A stretch of DNA of 64,000 nucleotides, taken from Bacteroidota bacterium (GTDB taxonomy: Bacteria; Bacteroidota; Bacteroidia; Cytophagales; UBA9547). Positions 12,600 to 18,641 of the stretch are shown here, in pieces. Location: contig JBEEOW010000007.1 in the NCBI GenBank assembly GCA_041191405.1, positions 33,484-97,483 on the forward strand, written 5' to 3'. The stretch's first letter is position 1, and each line of letters starts with the position of its first letter. The position numbers were made by a program, and so were the translations under genes. The notes beneath the pieces were generated by a model. That model was not told the origin of the DNA, did no database searches, and was given only the letters and a program-made list of their open reading frames with translations.

Positions 12600-15386
12600 T
12601 TACTCTTCAGTTACTACCATTTTTAAGCGGTGAATTTTTTCACTTATTACTTCAACAGTGTACACTCCTGGTGGCAAACTATGATTAATCATTACTGAAG
12701 TTTCAGTGCTTGTTTTTTCTTTAGCAAAAATCAAATTTCCACTAAAGTCATAAATATTAATTTTATCAATTGGATATTTACTTTGAGCAATTGAAACCTT
12801 ACCATCATTTGATGGATTTGGATACAATTTAATTAAATCAGGATTTTCAATTAAATCATTATCCAAATTTGTAAGAATTGATTTAATTTTAAAATATACT
12901 CTGTTTGAAATTTCGTTGTAGGAGTCATTTGTAAAAAACACTACAAAATATTCACCATCTAATTTGGGTACATTATCAGCTTGGAATGTAGCTGTGCCTT
13001 TTGGTAATCCACCTACATAAGCATAATTGATTAAAGGATCAATGTTCGGGTTTGCGTTTTTATTGAAAATCCCAAGCCAGTCTTTTGCTACACCTGGTCC
13101 ATCTTGAAAATCTACAGATATTAAATCTCCTAGATTGTATTCAATTTTATCAGTTTTAATTGTAGCAATTGTATCTCCATAGGAGAAATATAATTTATTA
13201 CCAACACCAGTGTAACCATCTGTTAATAAGTATTGTGCGTAATAATACCCTTTTGTTAATCCTGTAAATTTAAGAGTTCCATTCGTTCCTGTTGTGTAGC
13301 TCCATTTATCAGCAGGCGAACTTGCACCTGGGGTTTTTCCTACTCTATAAATACCTATCCAATCTTTTGCATTTGCGGGTGCATTCGAATAATTTATTTG
13401 TACTGTATCTTTGTTTTTGTAGGTGTTTTTATTTGATGTTAAAACTGGTATTGAACCAACATAAATATTTATTCTTGTTGCTAATTCAGTATAACCATCA
13501 TTTGAAAAATAAGCTATGTAATACTCTCCAGCAGTTGAAACAGTAAAATTAAGTACTCCACTAGCCCCTGTTACATACTTCCAAGTTGTTGAAGTAGTAC
13601 CTGAACCTGGAGTTTGTCCTTTTTTATAAATACCAATCCAATCTTTTAAGTTACCCGAACCATTGGTATAAGTTACTTGAATAGATTCACTGTTAATATA
13701 CTCAATTTTATCTGTAACTATTTTTGGGGTCGAAACTGTACTACCAGTAATAACCAAGGTTTGTACAGTTGACCAAGCCGACCAATTCATGTTTCTATCT
13801 CTATGTCTAACTCTTACATAATGAGTACCATTAGGTATTTCGCCTGAGTTTATTGTGTATTTAAAAATATCAACACCAGCACCAATATCTTTGGTTTTAT
13901 AAACTACCCCATCTTTACCAAATAAATTTTCATAATCTCTTAAAATATCCTTTTCTAAAGTTGAAAATGAATTTGTTTGTGAAATTTGGAATTGAGTAGA
14001 ATTGTAAGGCTCTGATGTTGTAGTGCTATATGTCGAACTTACCAAGGTAAACGGTAATGTGGTACTACTAGGAAATGTGTTTGTAAATGAAGGTGTTGCT
14101 GGAGATGCTTGTCCCGTTTTACGATAAAATTGATCAATTAACCTACTTTCTTCCCAAACAAATTTTGTGGTTGTATTTGTCCAATCATTAATTGAAGTAG
14201 TGTAACCAATTGAATATGATTCTATATTTACAGCATTCGTAACTAAATCAACTTCCATAATTTGGTAATTCCAATTACAAATAGTTTTCTGACAATCATC
14301 GTAATCAGCCTCTGTTGACATACCCCAATATTGGTCCCAAGCCGAACCACCAGAAATGATATTATAAACTGGTTTGTTTTTATCTTGTCCACGAGCATAT
14401 AGATGGTGATGAGCACCAACATTCATCAAATATTTCGATGAAGTAATCAATTTTGGATACATTGTATTTCTGATCCAAGTTGAAACGTCTCCAATATATT
14501 GTTCAGCTTGGTATGGTCTGTGCGCTAAAGAAACAATCCATTTTACATTAGGGTCAACATTGGCAGAATCTAAAACTTTTGCACCCCAAGTATATTGAGC
14601 TGCATTTAAAGTTGAACTTCCTTCTGTTGTGAAATTCATAAATAACACATTTCCAGCTAAAAAAGCATAATATTCTTCTGTACCCGAATTTATACCTTTA
14701 TAATTTATTCCATCATAATGAAAATGATTTTTGTATGCGGTTAAATTTAAAGAGCCATACGTTTCATGATTTCCAACTATTGTTGATATACCAATATATG
14801 GTGAAATTGCTTTTATCTTATTAAAATGTACATTTTCATAATGGTCTAGTGTTCCAACATCTACTTGGTCACCAACCATTACAACCATATCCACTGCCTC
14901 ATTTAACGGAACACCATATTTAGCTTCAACTTTGCGTTTAGCTCTGATTACCAATGAATCATAACGAGGTTCGTTTTTTAATTGGTTATCGCCCATAATT
15001 AAAAAACGCATTTTTTTATTACTTACCTCTGCCCCACCTGGCGAAGGCATGGTTCTAAATGAATAAACTGGAGAAACATACGCTCCAGTTTGTACTTTGT
15101 AATAATACTTGGTATAAGGCTGTAAACCAGTTAAATGTACAGAGTGATAGTAGTAATTGTTACTATAGCCAGCATCTGTCCAGATATTATTTGTACCTGT
15201 GGTTGTTAAATTCAGGTTTGATGAACTTTTACCATAAAGTACTTTACTTTCGGTACCTGATGAAGTTTTCCAGTTTATAAAAACCGAATTTGGTGTCATT
15301 ACCTCGAGGTAAGGCACAGTAGTTTGAGCTTTAAGGCTTGTTAATACTACAAAAAATAGCATTAAACTTAGTAATTTTGCTTTCAT
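12600..15386 (-). CDS. secreted calcineurin-like metallophosphoesterase with repeated beta-sandwich domains and a T9SS C-terminal sorting domain
   Basis: It has a signal peptide and the metallophosphoesterase motifs GDNQ, GDQVD and GNHE. Three ~90-aa repeats contain KDWIGIY. The C-terminus KLYPNPSNDGKVSI...YDFSGNLIF...GVYTVEV matches the Por/T9SS CTD. Confidence 0.75.
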   Translation of the reverse strand: MKAKLLSLMLFFVVLTSLKAQTTVPYLEVMTPNSVFINWKTSSGTESKVLYGKSSSNLNLTTTGTNNIWTDAGYSNNYYYHSVHLTGLQPYTKYYYKVQTGAYVSPVYSFRTMPSPGGAEVSNKKMRFLIMGDNQLKNEPRYDSLVIRAKRKVEAKYGVPLNEAVDMVVMVGDQVDVGTLDHYENVHFNKIKAISPYIGISTIVGNHETYGSLNLTAYKNHFHYDGINYKGINSGTEEYYAFLAGNVLFMNFTTEGSSTLNAAQYTWGAKVLDSANVDPNVKWIVSLAHRPYQAEQYIGDVSTWIRNTMYPKLITSSKYLMNVGAHHHLYARGQDKNKPVYNIISGGSAWDQYWGMSTEADYDDCQKTICNWNYQIMEVDLVTNAVNIESYSIGYTTSINDWTNTTTKFVWEESRLIDQFYRKTGQASPATPSFTNTFPSSTTLPFTLVSSTYSTTTSEPYNSTQFQISQTNSFSTLEKDILRDYENLFGKDGVVYKTKDIGAGVDIFKYTINSGEIPNGTHYVRVRHRDRNMNWSAWSTVQTLVITGSTVSTPKIVTDKIEYINSESIQVTYTNGSGNLKDWIGIYKKGQTPGSGTTSTTWKYVTGASGVLNFTVSTAGEYYIAYFSNDGYTELATRINIYVGSIPVLTSNKNTYKNKDTVQINYSNAPANAKDWIGIYRVGKTPGASSPADKWSYTTGTNGTLKFTGLTKGYYYAQYLLTDGYTGVGNKLYFSYGDTIATIKTDKIEYNLGDLISVDFQDGPGVAKDWLGIFNKNANPNIDPLINYAYVGGLPKGTATFQADNVPKLDGEYFVVFFTNDSYNEISNRVYFKIKSILTNLDNDLIENPDLIKLYPNPSNDGKVSIAQSKYPIDKINIYDFSGNLIFAKEKTSTETSVMINHSLPPGVYTVEVISEKIHRLKMVVTEE

Positions 15387-15632
15387 TATTAGGGTTTTGT
15401 AAATTATTAAATATTCTGAAACAACATTATTTCAGAGTAATAATCACTAGTCGATTTTAAATAAAAAGGTAACTTTTATATTTAGAGGTTAAAAATAAGT
15501 ATAATGTTGATAATCTAATAGTTAATGTTATTTTACAATAAAATGATTACCCTTTAATAATATTGAATGATATCTATTAAATTTTGAAAAATTATAAAGA
15601 AACATCTGAGTAATACTAAGAGTTGGATATTA

Positions 15633-15672
15633 AAAAAATTACCTAACAGGTTTTTAAAACCTGTCAGGTTTG
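15633..15672. terminator. terminator hairpin (copy 2, near-identical to 12553-12595)
   Basis: The sequence aaaaaaa-ttacctaacagg-tttttaaaa-cctgtcaggtt-tg lies downstream of the minus-strand gene 15683..16738. Confidence 0.6.
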
Positions 15673-15682
15673 ATAAATTTAA

Positions 15683-16738
15683 TTATCTACTTGTTTTTAT
15701 TCTGAAAACGAATTGTTTTGCATTTTCAATTTTAGATAATTTGTAGTTATTATTTGTTTTTGATTTGTTTGAAAGTTTAATTTTTACTTCCGATTTATTA
15801 ATTGCTTCAATGATTTCTTTTGATTTTAAGGCATACACAGCACCCTCATTTTCAGTATTTTTGGCTGTAATCACTCCTATCACATTTCCTTGTTCGTTAA
15901 ATAATGCTCCACCGCTATTTCCTGGATTTACCCAAATTCCAATTTGATATGCCAAGGTATCATCTTCGTAGCCATTTGCCGAACTTACATAACCTTCACC
16001 ATAAACGATACTTTTTTGTGGATAACCAAGCGTATAAACTTTTTGTCCTAATGGCGCTTGATTGGTTTCAAATTTAAATGGAATATTTCCAAAACCTTCA
16101 TTACTAGAATCTTCAATGGCTAAGATGGCGAAATCAAGTTTTTCGTTACTGTATATCAGTTTAGTTTTTATTGAACCAAACTTGTCATTTTCTGCAAAAA
16201 TCTTGTTTGCATCTTTAATAACATGATAATCAGTCAATATCATATTATTATTAATTGCAAAACCAGTTCCACCTGAAAGCATTTCTTCTGTTTTTTCTTC
16301 TTCTTCTTCGCTTACTACTTGCCACAATTTACTTTGCGATTTTTTAACTTTTTCTAAATCAAGTTTTAAAGCTTGGTAATGTGATTTTGTTTGGTTCGAT
16401 TTCATACCAATAAATGCAAAAGTCCCAATCACAAAAGCCAATGAAGCCGCAGCCATTATTGGCGTCCAGTTTTGATACCAAGGTATAATTTTGGTTTGTG
16501 GAGTTTGCGAAATTATATCTTTAGGCATTTCAGCATGAAACTGATTAAGTTTTGATTTTAATTCTAATCTATCTTTAAATACATCAAAACCATTCCTTAA
16601 CTTTTGATAATCAGCTACATCTTGCGCAAATATTGTTTCGTTTTTAAATCTATAATTGTATAATTCTATTTCTTCAGGAGTGGCAGTTCCTTCAAAATAT
16701 TTTTCTATTAGTTCAAATGTTAATCCTTTATCGTTCAT
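15683..16738 (-). CDS. membrane-anchored anti-sigma-like protein with periplasmic trypsin-like (S1) serine protease domain
   Basis: A ~95-aa cytoplasmic N-domain is followed by one TM segment (IMAAASLAFVIGTFAFIG) and then a chymotrypsin-fold domain. The catalytic triad is visible as His in LTDYHVI, Asp in LDFAIL and Ser in GNSGGALF. The start was moved to the ATG at 16738, which is 9 nt from the stop of the sigma gene. Confidence 0.7.
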   Translation of the reverse strand: MNDKGLTFELIEKYFEGTATPEEIELYNYRFKNETIFAQDVADYQKLRNGFDVFKDRLELKSKLNQFHAEMPKDIISQTPQTKIIPWYQNWTPIMAAASLAFVIGTFAFIGMKSNQTKSHYQALKLDLEKVKKSQSKLWQVVSEEEEEKTEEMLSGGTGFAINNNMILTDYHVIKDANKIFAENDKFGSIKTKLIYSNEKLDFAILAIEDSSNEGFGNIPFKFETNQAPLGQKVYTLGYPQKSIVYGEGYVSSANGYEDDTLAYQIGIWVNPGNSGGALFNEQGNVIGVITAKNTENEGAVYALKSKEIIEAINKSEVKIKLSNKSKTNNNYKLSKIENAKQFVFRIKTSR

Positions 16739-16746
16739 AACCTTAT

Positions 16747-17319
16747 TTATTCGAAGATGGATACTTTTTGATTTTGTTGTGATGCAAAGAACAGTTTTTT
16801 GAGTCTTTGCAAACACTTATATTTCTGATTTTTAGCATTATCAGCATTGGTATAGCCAAATTTATCTGCGATTGCATTCATTGATAAATTATGGATATAA
16901 TAGTCTTCAATAATCGTTTTACAGGGTTCGCCCAAACCAAGTAACGCAGTATTCATTTGTTGAAATTGAATTTCATTTTCAGTTTGGGTATTTAACTCCA
17001 CTTCTTCATACTTTTCATTTTCGTATAAATCAGCTACATATTTTGATTTTGCACTTAATTTCCTAAGCCATAGTCTTTTACAAATAGCATATAGATAAGT
17101 GGCTATACTACAAGTTAATTCAAATGAATTATCCCTAATTTTTTCATAAAACAAAATCACAGCTTCTTGATAAATATCTTTGGCTTCGTCTTCAGTACCG
17201 TTGTTATTCAGTACCAAAAAGTTAATTGGTTTAAAATGAGACTTATAAAGCAATTCTAATGCTTTATTATCACCATTTTTTATCCCTGAAATGAGTAATT
17301 GATCTGTTTGATATTGCAT
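16747..17319 (-). CDS. ECF (sigma-70 family) RNA polymerase sigma factor
   Basis: It has a region-2-like segment (ELLYKSHFKPI...EDEAKDIYQEAVILFYEKI) and a region-4-like segment near the C-terminus. It is 190 aa and is followed immediately by the membrane partner. Confidence 0.8.
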   Translation of the reverse strand: MQYQTDQLLISGIKNGDNKALELLYKSHFKPINFLVLNNNGTEDEAKDIYQEAVILFYEKIRDNSFELTCSIATYLYAICKRLWLRKLSAKSKYVADLYENEKYEEVELNTQTENEIQFQQMNTALLGLGEPCKTIIEDYYIHNLSMNAIADKFGYTNADNAKNQKYKCLQRLKKLFFASQQNQKVSIFE

Positions 17320-17432
17320 AGACTCAAATTTGGTGTCTTTTATGCAATAATGCGTTATAGGTAACCCAAAAAAATGAAAATATTTTAAAATTATCTTACA
17401 TCCTTTTATACCTTTACCACAAATAGTTAAGT

Positions 17433-17996
17433 ATGCTAAAAGAATATTTTAAATCATTCAATATATTTTCTGAAAGTGAAATAAATGAAATTGAAAATAT
17501 TGCCAAATTTAAATCTTTACATAAAAACGATTATTTAATTAAAGAAAACGAAGTTTGTAAAAATGTAGCATTTATAGTTTCGGGAACATTAAGGTCGTTT
17601 TATATTGCTAACAATGGAGATGAAATGAGCTATTGTATATCCTTTCCAAATCAATTTATTACTGCGTATTCATCGTTTATAACTGGTGCTGTTTCAAAAG
17701 AAAATATTCAGGCAATTACACCAGTTGAAATGTATTTGATTAGTAAAGAAGATATTGAATCAATTAGTGCCAATAATTTAAACTGGATTAAATTTCAAAA
17801 AATTATGGCTGAATTTCAGTATCTTGAATTAGAAAATAGAATTTTTCAATTACAAAGAGATTCTGCAACTGAAAGATATTTAAATTTAAAAACTTCTCAT
17901 CCTGAGTATTTTAGCAAAATTCCATTACAATATATTGCCTCCTATTTAGGAATTACACAACGACATTTAAGTAGAATTAGAAAAGAATGTAATTGA
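17433..17996 (+). CDS. Crp/Fnr-family transcriptional regulator
   Basis: It has an N-terminal cNMP-binding-like beta-roll and a C-terminal HTH (ASYLGITQRHLSRIRKE). Confidence 0.75.
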   Translation: MLKEYFKSFNIFSESEINEIENIAKFKSLHKNDYLIKENEVCKNVAFIVSGTLRSFYIANNGDEMSYCISFPNQFITAYSSFITGAVSKENIQAITPVEMYLISKEDIESISANNLNWIKFQKIMAEFQYLELENRIFQLQRDSATERYLNLKTSHPEYFSKIPLQYIASYLGITQRHLSRIRKECN

Positions 17997-18062: not shown

Positions 18063-18641
18063 ATGAAAAAAATACTAATCATAAACGGACATCCAAATCT
18101 AGAGTCATACAATAAAGCATTGGCTGAATCATATAAAAATGGAGCTTTGGCTTCAAATGCTGAAGTAAAAGAAATCCATATTGGTAGTTTAAATTTTAAT
18201 CCTAATTTGGCATTTGGTTACCAAAAAAGAACAGAATTAGAACCTGATTTATTAGATGCTTGGGATAAAATTTTGTGGGCAAATCATCTAGTTTGGATTC
18301 ATCCTGTATGGTGGGGAGGTTTGCCAGCCATTACCAAAGGTTTTATAGATAGATTATTTTTACCTGGATTTGCTTTTCAATACCGTGAAAATTCTGTTTG
18401 GTGGGATAAACTTCTAAAAGGTAAAACTGCACACATTATCACCACTTTAGATCAACCAAGTTGTTATTATAAAATTATTTATGGCAACCCTAGTGTAAAT
18501 CAACTTAAAAAATCAACTTTGGAATTTTGTGGTATAAAGCCAGTAAAAGTAACCTATGTTGGGATTATTAAAAATTCGAGCCTAGAAAATAGACACAAAT
18601 GGATTGATAAGGTTAAGCAGTTAGGAATAAGATTGTTATAA
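18063..18641 (+). CDS. flavodoxin-like NAD(P)H dehydrogenase (quinone) family protein
   Basis: The sequence MKKILIINGHPNLESYNKALAESY is the typical N-terminus of the NAD(P)H-quinone oxidoreductase / general-stress-protein-14 family. Confidence 0.7.
   Translation: MKKILIINGHPNLESYNKALAESYKNGALASNAEVKEIHIGSLNFNPNLAFGYQKRTELEPDLLDAWDKILWANHLVWIHPVWWGGLPAITKGFIDRLFLPGFAFQYRENSVWWDKLLKGKTAHIITTLDQPSCYYKIIYGNPSVNQLKKSTLEFCGIKPVKVTYVGIIKNSSLENRHKWIDKVKQLGIRLL

Follow-up and report, generated by a model that had tools for sequence, protein, structure and literature searches.

A Sigma Factor Gene and a Protease Fusion Gene Form a Putative Operon

The DNA analysed here, referred to as the window, is a stretch of 64,000 nt from a Bacteroidota bacterium (GenBank assembly GCA_041191405.1, contig JBEEOW010000007.1, positions 33,484 to 97,483 of the forward strand; window coordinates count from its first nucleotide). 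We studied two adjacent genes on its minus strand, one coding for a sigma factor and one for a protein that joins a putative anti-sigma domain and an HtrA-like protease across a single transmembrane (TM) helix. The sigma gene (16747..17319) encodes 190 aa, and residues 20-175 match the sigma70-ECF model TIGR02937 with 58.8 bits (cutoff 42.9; E = 5e-16), while the match to Pfam Sigma70_r2 alone is weak (20.8, under the cutoff of 24). The product is a small extracytoplasmic function (ECF, group 4) sigma-70 factor with regions 2 and 4 only, according to this curated model. The second gene (15683..16738, stop codon included) encodes the 351 aa fusion of an anti-sigma-like and an HtrA-like protease part, as defined by its open reading frame (ORF), profile matches, an alignment of homologues and an AlphaFold2 (AF2) model. 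An initial annotation of the window had placed an ECF sigma factor and a partner with a DegS/HtrA-like protease domain and an intact catalytic triad at this position, and both are indeed found there, as seen from TIGR02937, PF13365 and a triad that is present in 150 of 150 family members. The gap of 9 nt between the two genes had to be corrected: the sigma stop codon TAA is located at 16749..16747 and the ATG of the fusion at 16738, which leaves 8 nt. The mechanically derived ORF list gives a GTG at 16816, inside the sigma gene, as start of the fusion; the alignment of homologues supports the methionine at 16738.

Upstream of the sigma gene an ECF-type promoter-like element is located on the minus strand at 17339..17367, consisting of a -35 element GGGTTAC (17367..17361), a spacer of 15 nt and the -10-like sequence GCATAAA (17345..17339). 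GGTTAC begins 47 nt upstream of the ATG of the sigma gene. On the same strand, 14 nt after the stop codon of the fusion, an intrinsic-terminator-like hairpin with a 13-bp stem, a 3-nt loop and a T-run was found at 15631..15669 (hairpin 15669..15641). This hairpin is the only terminator-like site between 15380 and 17440, with 0.5 such sites expected in shuffled sequences. Since the promoter-like element and the terminator bracket exactly the sigma gene and the fusion gene, the two genes most likely constitute a bicistronic operon.

The Fusion Is Linked to the Same Sigma Factor at All 24 Full-Length Loci

Thousands of relatives of the fusion were found. The best 120 of them are 341-394 aa long and align over 85-100% of the query, in most cases over 96-100%. 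Those among them with a named source belong to the Bacteroidota (Pseudopedobacter, Pedobacter, Mucilaginibacter, Cytophagaceae, Cyclobacteriaceae), and in public databases they are named only "serine protease", "S1C family serine protease" or "serine protease Do". A search of genome contigs with the single fusion protein returned nothing but one irrelevant protease match. A metagenome scan based on an alignment yielded 80 loci. The linkage was analysed at those loci where a full-length relative is encoded and the DNA upstream of it is available, 24 in total: 22 from the metagenome scan, the locus of Pseudopedobacter saltans (CP002545) and another long contig. In the latter two the fusion gene directly follows a Sigma70_r2 gene, and the flanking genes differ.

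A close homologue of the window sigma factor is encoded immediately upstream and on the same strand at 24 of 24 loci with a full-length relative (phmmer E values of 1e-48 to 1e-61). Loci that share only the protease domain have such a sigma gene upstream in none of 58 cases. All-against-all clustering of the ORFs at these loci revealed that the sigma gene and the fusion gene alone are universally conserved, and that the genes flanking the pair vary. The presence of the same sigma factor at all 24 loci argues against a chance juxtaposition. The initial annotation was to be given up if orthologues of the protease turned out not to be sigma-linked in other genomes; with linkage at every locus it stands on this point. 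Its second condition, an N-terminal domain that neither interacts with nor resembles anti-sigma domains, did not refute it either.

Domain Architecture of the Fusion Protein

An AF2 model of the fusion was built on 39 homologues and reached a mean pLDDT (predicted local distance difference test score) of 79.6; conservation was counted in 150 aligned family members, comprising representatives at 50% identity and the top hits. The cytoplasmic N-domain (aa 1-91; 16466..16738, minus strand, as for all parts of the fusion) is composed of helices 3-16, 21-33 and 35-70 with pLDDT values of 89-95, followed by a poorly conserved tether that is modelled with low confidence. Its characteristic motif is ELIExY(L/F)xGxxxxxE. 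The N-domain is followed by a single TM helix (aa 92-112; 16403..16465), which AF2 models as a helix from 92 to 110. In agreement with the initial annotation, hydropathy analysis gave a single peak at 92-112 and no second hydrophobic segment. All 121 members examined in this way have one TM segment, with a mean hydropathy of 2.17 versus 0.88 for the next-best segment.

On the periplasmic side AF2 predicts a juxtamembrane helix (aa 118-143; 16310..16387) with a heptad pattern. The a and d positions (121, 124, 128, 131, 135, 138 and 142, position 135 being Q135) show conserved hydrophobic residues with a spacing of 3-4 in the 150 sequences, and the helix probably forms a coiled-coil stalk. It leads into an acidic low-complexity linker with the sequence EEEEEKTEE (aa 144-152; 16283..16309). 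The Glu-rich linker described in the initial annotation is therefore real; it varies in length and sequence across the family and is disordered, with pLDDT values below 50 at 144-150. This linker is a candidate for the region of site-1 cleavage. The protease domain (aa 153-315; 15794..16282) is followed by a conserved C-terminal tail (aa 316-351; 15686..15793) with a helix at 333-343 and a terminal beta-strand at 344-350. The consensus of the tail is R..Q(I)KK(I/L)QD(Y/F)VFxVKVY, with (Y/F)VFx(V/I)KVY as terminal strand. R333 is conserved in 134 and Q336 in 139 of the 150 sequences, and the block 341-350 has a mean pLDDT of 92. The tail, modelled with high confidence, stands where a PDZ domain would be, and it may act as a lid, in oligomerisation or as a surface for peptide binding.

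The Protease Domain Is of the HtrA Type and Lacks a PDZ Domain

Residues 157-289 match Trypsin_2 (PF13365) with 75.5 bits (cutoff 27.6; E = 9e-21), and the fusion also matches Pfam Trypsin (E = 3e-11). The model shows a two-barrel structure at 153-315, mostly with pLDDT values around 90. The best Foldseek matches in the PDB were HTRA1, DegS-deltaPDZ, MucD, DegQ, plant Deg proteases and MarP (E values of about 2e-10, probability 1.00). The domain has a chymotrypsin fold with the triad and its motifs in the order His-Asp-Ser of the HtrA type (S1C): H172 (DYHVI), D202 (DFAIL) and S275 (GNSGG), each of which is invariant in 150 of 150 sequences. This invariance demonstrates that catalysis is under strict selection and that the domain is not a pseudo-protease. 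A pseudo-protease had been considered, as a first regular expression suggested that many members lack GNSGG; this idea was rejected, because the aligned variants are GNSG(S/A) and the Ser is present in all 150.

In NCBIfam only HtrA-type models were matched, all far under their cutoffs (MarP 78/250, DegP 73/416, DegS 45/423). No Pfam match to a PDZ domain was found in the fusion, and just 36 residues, modelled as one helix and one strand, follow the protease domain. The domain had been called DegS-like in the initial annotation. This is adequate with regard to the HtrA-like fold and the triad, but the PDZ domain that defines the regulation of DegS is absent.

The N-Domain Resembles Anti-Sigma Domains in Its Predicted Fold

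The top two structural matches of the N-domain are anti-sigma domains, and PupR (rank 9) and RskA (rank 51) were found further down. According to the model, the N-domain hence agrees, if modestly, with the N-terminal helical-bundle fold of the solved class I anti-sigma domains (ASDI). It does not have the zinc motif H-x3-C-x2-C of the ZAS subgroup, as it contains no Cys. A His at position 44 is semi-conserved in the family (Tyr in the window protein) and His68 is present in 146 of 150 members, with no Cys pair.

To see in which proteins this domain occurs, we made use of a profile of the N-domain, which detected 7336 proteins at E <= 1e-3 among 1.84 billion representatives. Among the top 96 matches scanned, 38 contain Trypsin_2 (39 are protease-like by phmmer), 12 TPR repeats and 4 zf-HC2, the Pfam model for anti-sigma domains that bind zinc. 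Related N-domain proteins give weak to strong matches to zf-HC2 or RseA_N over the same helix, E-x-Y-L-x-G-x-L. One N-domain protein that has no protease part (P0150, 314 aa) is encoded directly downstream of an ECF-type sigma factor related to the window sigma. The N-domain thus stands beside a related sigma factor also when combined with a different periplasmic part, implying that the sigma factor and the N-domain are the constant pair and that the periplasmic part is exchangeable. As judged from these sequence comparisons, such a pattern is the signature of an anti-sigma module. Fold, synteny and domain swap together suggest that the N-domain binds the sigma factor, and we consider its anti-sigma role as well supported but not proven.

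The N-module (ExYLxGxLxxxExxxFE...) is widespread. It was also observed in fusion to TPR-containing or unannotated periplasmic parts (P0121-P0264; locus L085:2442-3945), and some proteins contain two to nine copies of it in tandem. It may represent a large unannotated family of anti-sigma modules in Bacteroidota.

Topology and Constraint on the Transmembrane Helix

Of 121 members, 75 have more Lys and Arg residues on the N-flank than on the C-flank of the TM helix, and 8 have fewer. This family-wide bias, to which the window protein is an exception, points to a single-pass N-in/C-out topology with a large extracytoplasmic part.

Within the TM helix A97 and A98 are each invariant (150/150), S99 is present in 127 of 150 sequences, residue 96 is V, I or A, and the other positions are variable. 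The resulting (V/I/A)-Ala-Ala motif (aa 96-98; 16445-16453, minus strand), recognised in the alignment of the 150 sequences, is located near the cytoplasmic end of the helix. RseA ends in VAA after cleavage by RseP. In the TM helices of RsgI anti-sigma factors, XAA motifs are the C-terminal ends that are left by RseP and recognised by ClpXP (PMC12203970). The invariant Ala-Ala is best explained if the TM helix is a substrate of a site-2 protease and of Clp, and by analogy to these systems (V/I/A)96-A97-A98-S99, with its small or helix-weakening residues, is predicted to leave an XAA end that could serve as ClpXP degron once a site-2 protease has cut. As established for RseP, a substrate is accepted by site-2 proteases only when its periplasmic part has been trimmed (PMC8103513). 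The 239 residues of the fusion that follow the TM helix must therefore be cut first, and a competent-looking protease domain adjoins a disordered linker in the same chain.

A Conserved Promoter Motif and a Candidate Regulon

In the 21 related loci that were aligned, the sequence tGGGTTAC-N15-GTATTAA is present 31-62 nt upstream of the sigma start. It differs from the housekeeping promoter consensus and has a two-block layout like that of ECF promoters. An xxATAAA variant of the -10 element is common to the window and to its relative with 49% identity (L090). Conservation of a promoter of this layout upstream of the sigma gene implies autoregulation: the sigma factor and the fusion would be co-transcribed, sigma factor together with its regulator, from a group-specific promoter under control of the sigma factor itself. 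A position weight matrix (PWM) was built from 15 related promoters. A search of the 64-kb window with this PWM gave no second convincing copy of the promoter.

In at least 11 of 22 related loci the full motif GGTTAC-N15-GTATTA also precedes 1-4 tandem lipoprotein genes that are divergent from the sigma gene (L002:3811-3993, L005:1508-2295, L009:1483-2341, L010:1168-2166, L013:654-2154, L021:926-2199 and others, listed on the minus strand). Their ATG is in most cases located 58-71 nt from the -35 element. At two more loci, L012 and L019, homologous ORFs occupy this position. The encoded proteins have 58-95 aa and consist of a signal peptide (MKNxFKxGFLALAISLSxxAC), a lipobox Cys and low-complexity repeats of Asp, Thr, Ser and Lys, e.g., VDTTVK. 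Since each of the genes is preceded by a full motif of the sigma type, they probably belong to the regulon of the sigma factor and represent its best candidates. A gene for a small Asp/Thr-rich lipoprotein was looked for within the window, and none was found. At L012:1000-1060, L019:1870-1925 and L024:2235-2290 the divergent promoters form an inverted repeat, GGTAACCC ... GGGTTACC. Two -35 elements stand back to back there at a distance of about 25-35 nt, resulting in a compact bidirectional ECF promoter region.

The gene downstream of the fusion in the window (12600-15386, minus strand) encodes a secreted protein of 928 aa, a purple-acid-phosphatase/metallophosphoesterase with a C-terminal sorting domain for type IX secretion (Por_Secre_tail), which identifies the source as a member of the Bacteroidota. 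Divergent from the sigma gene, on the plus strand, genes for a Crp/Fnr-type regulator that binds cyclic nucleotides and for a flavodoxin-like NAD(P)H quinone reductase are located (17433-17996 and 18063-18641). We considered a linkage of the operon to the Crp-like regulator, as a gene for a 30% identical protein lies 3 kb from the P. saltans operon (L002:604-1182, minus strand). It is absent from the other loci and of a very common type, so this is probably a coincidence.

Proposed Mechanism and Alternative Explanations

From these data we consider it likely that the fusion is the cognate anti-sigma factor of the window sigma and carries an active periplasmic protease domain. For the system as a whole, the evidence leans towards a self-contained ECF module, in which an autoregulated operon encodes a membrane anti-sigma factor with an active PDZ-less HtrA-type sensor that is released by self-cleavage. 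That self-cleavage is the trigger of sigma release is suggested by analogy, and we put this step forward tentatively.

In the resting state the three-helix N-domain with its fold similar to class I anti-sigma domains would keep the sigma factor at the membrane. As is the case for HtrA proteases, the periplasmic parts would form oligomers, held together by the heptad-repeat stalk and the protease domains, with the protease in a state of low activity. An envelope signal would turn the protease on; the most likely one is envelope protein that is unfolded or in the wrong place and that serves as a substrate or as an allosteric activator. The activated protease would then cut the disordered linker or the stalk of its own or a neighbouring chain, and this site-1 cut would correspond to the role of DegS on RseA. 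The remaining stub could be cleaved by an RseP-type site-2 protease in the TM helix at (V/I/A)-Ala-Ala, and the exposed XAA end would serve as degron for a ClpXP-type protease, leading to degradation of the N-domain and to release of the sigma factor. Free sigma factor would use GGGTTAC-N15-GTATTAA promoters of its own operon, thereby resetting the system, and in many relatives those of the 1-4 small Asp/Thr-rich lipoproteins. For oligomerisation, the signal-activated self-cut and the steps of site-2 protease and ClpXP, we infer this course from RseA/DegS/RseP/ClpXP and from RsgI. The autoproteolytic, self-contained module that was already suggested in the initial annotation would be compatible with the invariant triad, the invariant Ala-Ala of the TM helix and the disordered linker.

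Several observations weigh against this view. The similarity of the N-domain to anti-sigma domains holds for structure, with anti-sigma domains as top two matches, but not for sequence: residues 1-153 gave no Pfam family at E <= 10, including zf-HC2 (PF13490) and RseA_N (PF03872), and the N-domain family profile retrieved no anti-sigma chain from PDB sequences at E <= 10 but only two chance matches with E values around 1. Nothing in the sequence of the fusion identifies a cleavage site, and self-cleavage is one of several ways in which a fused protease could matter. As the PDZ domain is missing, the activation mechanism of DegS cannot apply as such. The window protein is among the eight exceptions to the charge bias, with one Lys or Arg on the N-flank and three on the C-flank. 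The -10 element GCATAAA of the window promoter is off consensus and its PWM score was reached by shuffled sequence; the promoter call at this locus was therefore made because of its position and the perfect -35 element. A search for site-2 protease motifs within the window found none, which is uninformative.

These observations leave room for other explanations. The protease may mainly be a product induced by the sigma factor, as DegP is by sigma-E, with a function in quality control or processing in the envelope, and the intact fusion would titrate the sigma factor and so provide negative feedback. Release would then depend on a separate site-1 protease (Prc/Tsp-like or another HtrA) or on a substrate load that alters conformation or stability of the fusion. 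A protease that is itself a regulon member fits well to an autoregulated operon, and a housekeeping substrate would explain the invariant triad equally well. There is also a precedent in M. tuberculosis, where the gene for HtrA is co-transcribed with rseA next to sigE, the products being separate proteins and the link unexplained (PMC10027907). However, this explanation does not account for the covalent joining of protease and anti-sigma domain at 24 of 24 loci, and with its invariant Ala-Ala and disordered linker the fusion itself still looks like a target of regulated proteolysis. In addition, clustering of the ORFs at the loci revealed no second conserved protease gene in the neighbourhood. 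We therefore regard feedback of this kind as possible but rather unlikely.

It is improbable that the N-domain is no anti-sigma domain at all and has another cytoplasmic role or serves as an anchor. The fusion would in that case be a sigma-dependent, membrane-anchored protease that shares a transcript with its regulator, and an actual anti-sigma factor, should there be one, would be encoded elsewhere. The N-domain has no sequence match to a curated anti-sigma family or a solved anti-sigma chain, and a class I anti-sigma domain can be recognised near only 6% of Bacteroidetes ECFs, other modes of regulation having been proposed (PMC7406223). Yet anti-sigma domains lead its structural matches, the shared N-terminal motif coincides with positions of the zf-HC2 model in related proteins, and an N-domain with a different periplasmic part again adjoins a related ECF sigma factor. 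Moreover, a sigma gene followed after 8 nt by the gene for a single-pass protein with a cytoplasmic N-domain of about 90 aa is the canonical sigma/anti-sigma layout, and the neighbourhood contains no other conserved candidate. An inverted topology, with the N-domain outside and a cytoplasmic protease acting on the sigma factor or on cytoplasmic substrates, appears very improbable to us. The flanking charges of the window protein would fit to it, and the protease domain lacks conserved cysteines that would mark a periplasmic site. The charge bias of the family is opposite, however, and export of a highly charged N-domain of 91 residues without a signal peptide is not to be expected. The fold of the N-domain matches cytoplasmic anti-sigma domains, and the nearest relatives of the protease (DegS, DegQ, MucD, MarP, HTRA1) are all extracytoplasmic.

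An extended version of the self-contained module, which we consider doubtful at present, would be that of RseA and DegS in one protein. Such a protein would sense envelope damage through substrate-activated trans-autoproteolysis within a coiled-coil-stalked oligomer, with no need for a separate site-1 protease. The sigma factor would induce a dedicated set of small, intrinsically disordered Asp/Thr-rich lipoproteins as possible competing substrates or buffers that close a feedback loop, and the fusion would be a Rosetta stone for the coupling of anti-sigma factors and HtrA proteases. If true, this would imply direct functional coupling also in other phyla, where the two are merely co-transcribed, e.g., as rseA-htrA in mycobacteria. 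Handles for testing are defined by Ser275, by Ala97-Ala98 in the TM helix, by the promoter motif as a reporter and by the candidate regulon genes.

Significance of the Fusion Family

No other alternative sigma factors are as numerous as the ECF type. With an average of 22.5 per genome, Bacteroidota surpass all other phyla in this respect (PMC7826278), yet a class I anti-sigma partner can be recognised for only about 6% of the Bacteroidetes ECFs (PMC7406223). The fusion family would supply one such missing partner, which is hidden in annotation as "S1C family serine protease". In line with the initial annotation, which considered the arrangement as not commonly described, neither the N-domain nor the whole protein has a curated Pfam or NCBIfam family, and a literature search found nothing comparable. 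No published description of a trypsin/HtrA-fused anti-sigma factor was found in the full texts searched, including the paper on ECF re-classification, its preprint and the paper on ASDI coevolution, although a listing in the supplementary groups of PMC7826278 or in the ECF Hub is still possible. Neither the components nor the logic of regulated proteolysis is new; as far as checked, the covalent union of an anti-sigma domain and a complete HtrA-type protease is uncharacterised and unannotated.

If the proposed mechanism is true, the fusion is a minimal switch for regulated proteolysis, with sensor, site-1 protease and anti-sigma factor in one chain. It would offer a simple system for studying how HtrA-type proteases are activated without PDZ domains, and a compact, possibly orthogonal sensor of envelope stress for synthetic biology. 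It may also hint at the reason for which mycobacteria transcribe anti-sigma and htrA genes together.

Comparison with Known Systems

A close parallel in function is regulated intramembrane proteolysis in E. coli (sigma-E/RseA/DegS/RseP/ClpXP; AlgU/MucA/AlgW in P. aeruginosa), for which the roles of DegS and RseA have been described (PMC8103513). An HtrA-family protease carries out the periplasmic step in these systems and would do so here, and the TM helix has an Ala-Ala of the kind that is exposed by site-2 cleavage (PMC12203970). In E. coli, RseA and DegS are two proteins from different loci, whereas in the fusion a single chain comprises both the anti-sigma domain and the protease, so that two of four players are fused. 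DegS is switched by the binding of outer membrane protein C-termini to its PDZ domain, and the fusion, lacking PDZ, lacks such a switch. In addition, no RseB-like partner is conserved at the fusion loci and the N-domain shows no detectable sequence similarity to RseA_N.

In the SigW/RsiW system of B. subtilis, RsiW is also a single-pass membrane anti-sigma factor that is removed by site-1, site-2 and Clp proteolysis. It contains the zinc motif H-x3-C-x2-C, in contrast to the N-domain of the fusion family, which has no Cys. PrsW, the site-1 protease for RsiW, is a separate membrane protein with an unrelated fold. MarP (Rv3671c) resembles the fusion as a PDZ-less, HtrA-like periplasmic protease that is tethered to the membrane. 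Its structures are among the Foldseek matches and its model NF033740 is the best NCBIfam match (E = 5.5e-22; 78.3 bits versus a cutoff of 250), covering the protease part only. MarP crosses the membrane with four TM helices, is not known to contain an anti-sigma-like domain, and unlike the sigma-linked fusion with its single TM helix it is not linked to a sigma factor. The fusion is not a member of the MarP family.

RsgI of Clostridium thermocellum and regulators of the FecR/FoxR type undergo a first periplasmic cut by the anti-sigma factor itself, followed by RseP and ClpXP (PMC12203970; PMC9249621). As proposed for the fusion, they do without a separate site-1 protease, and the TM helices of RsgI also carry XAA motifs. 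The cut in these proteins is due to non-enzymatic or dedicated chemistry (FoxR undergoes an N-O acyl shift at Gly-Thr, and RsgI has a domain for autocleavage) and is often constitutive. By contrast, the candidate agent in the fusion, for which self-cleavage is a proposal, is a complete protease domain with Ser, His and Asp that can also process other substrates.

Mycobacterial HtrA has a PDZ domain, and RseA of M. tuberculosis is cytoplasmic and degraded after phosphorylation. The genes for the anti-sigma factor and the membrane-anchored HtrA are co-transcribed in M. tuberculosis as rseA-htrA-tatB next to sigE, and the link between rseA and htrA is described as not understood (PMC10027907). 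RseA and HtrA are separate proteins there, and HtrA has a known amidase-related substrate, while the corresponding parts are fused in the Bacteroidota protein. This fusion could therefore serve as a "Rosetta stone" for the mycobacterial rseA-htrA link.

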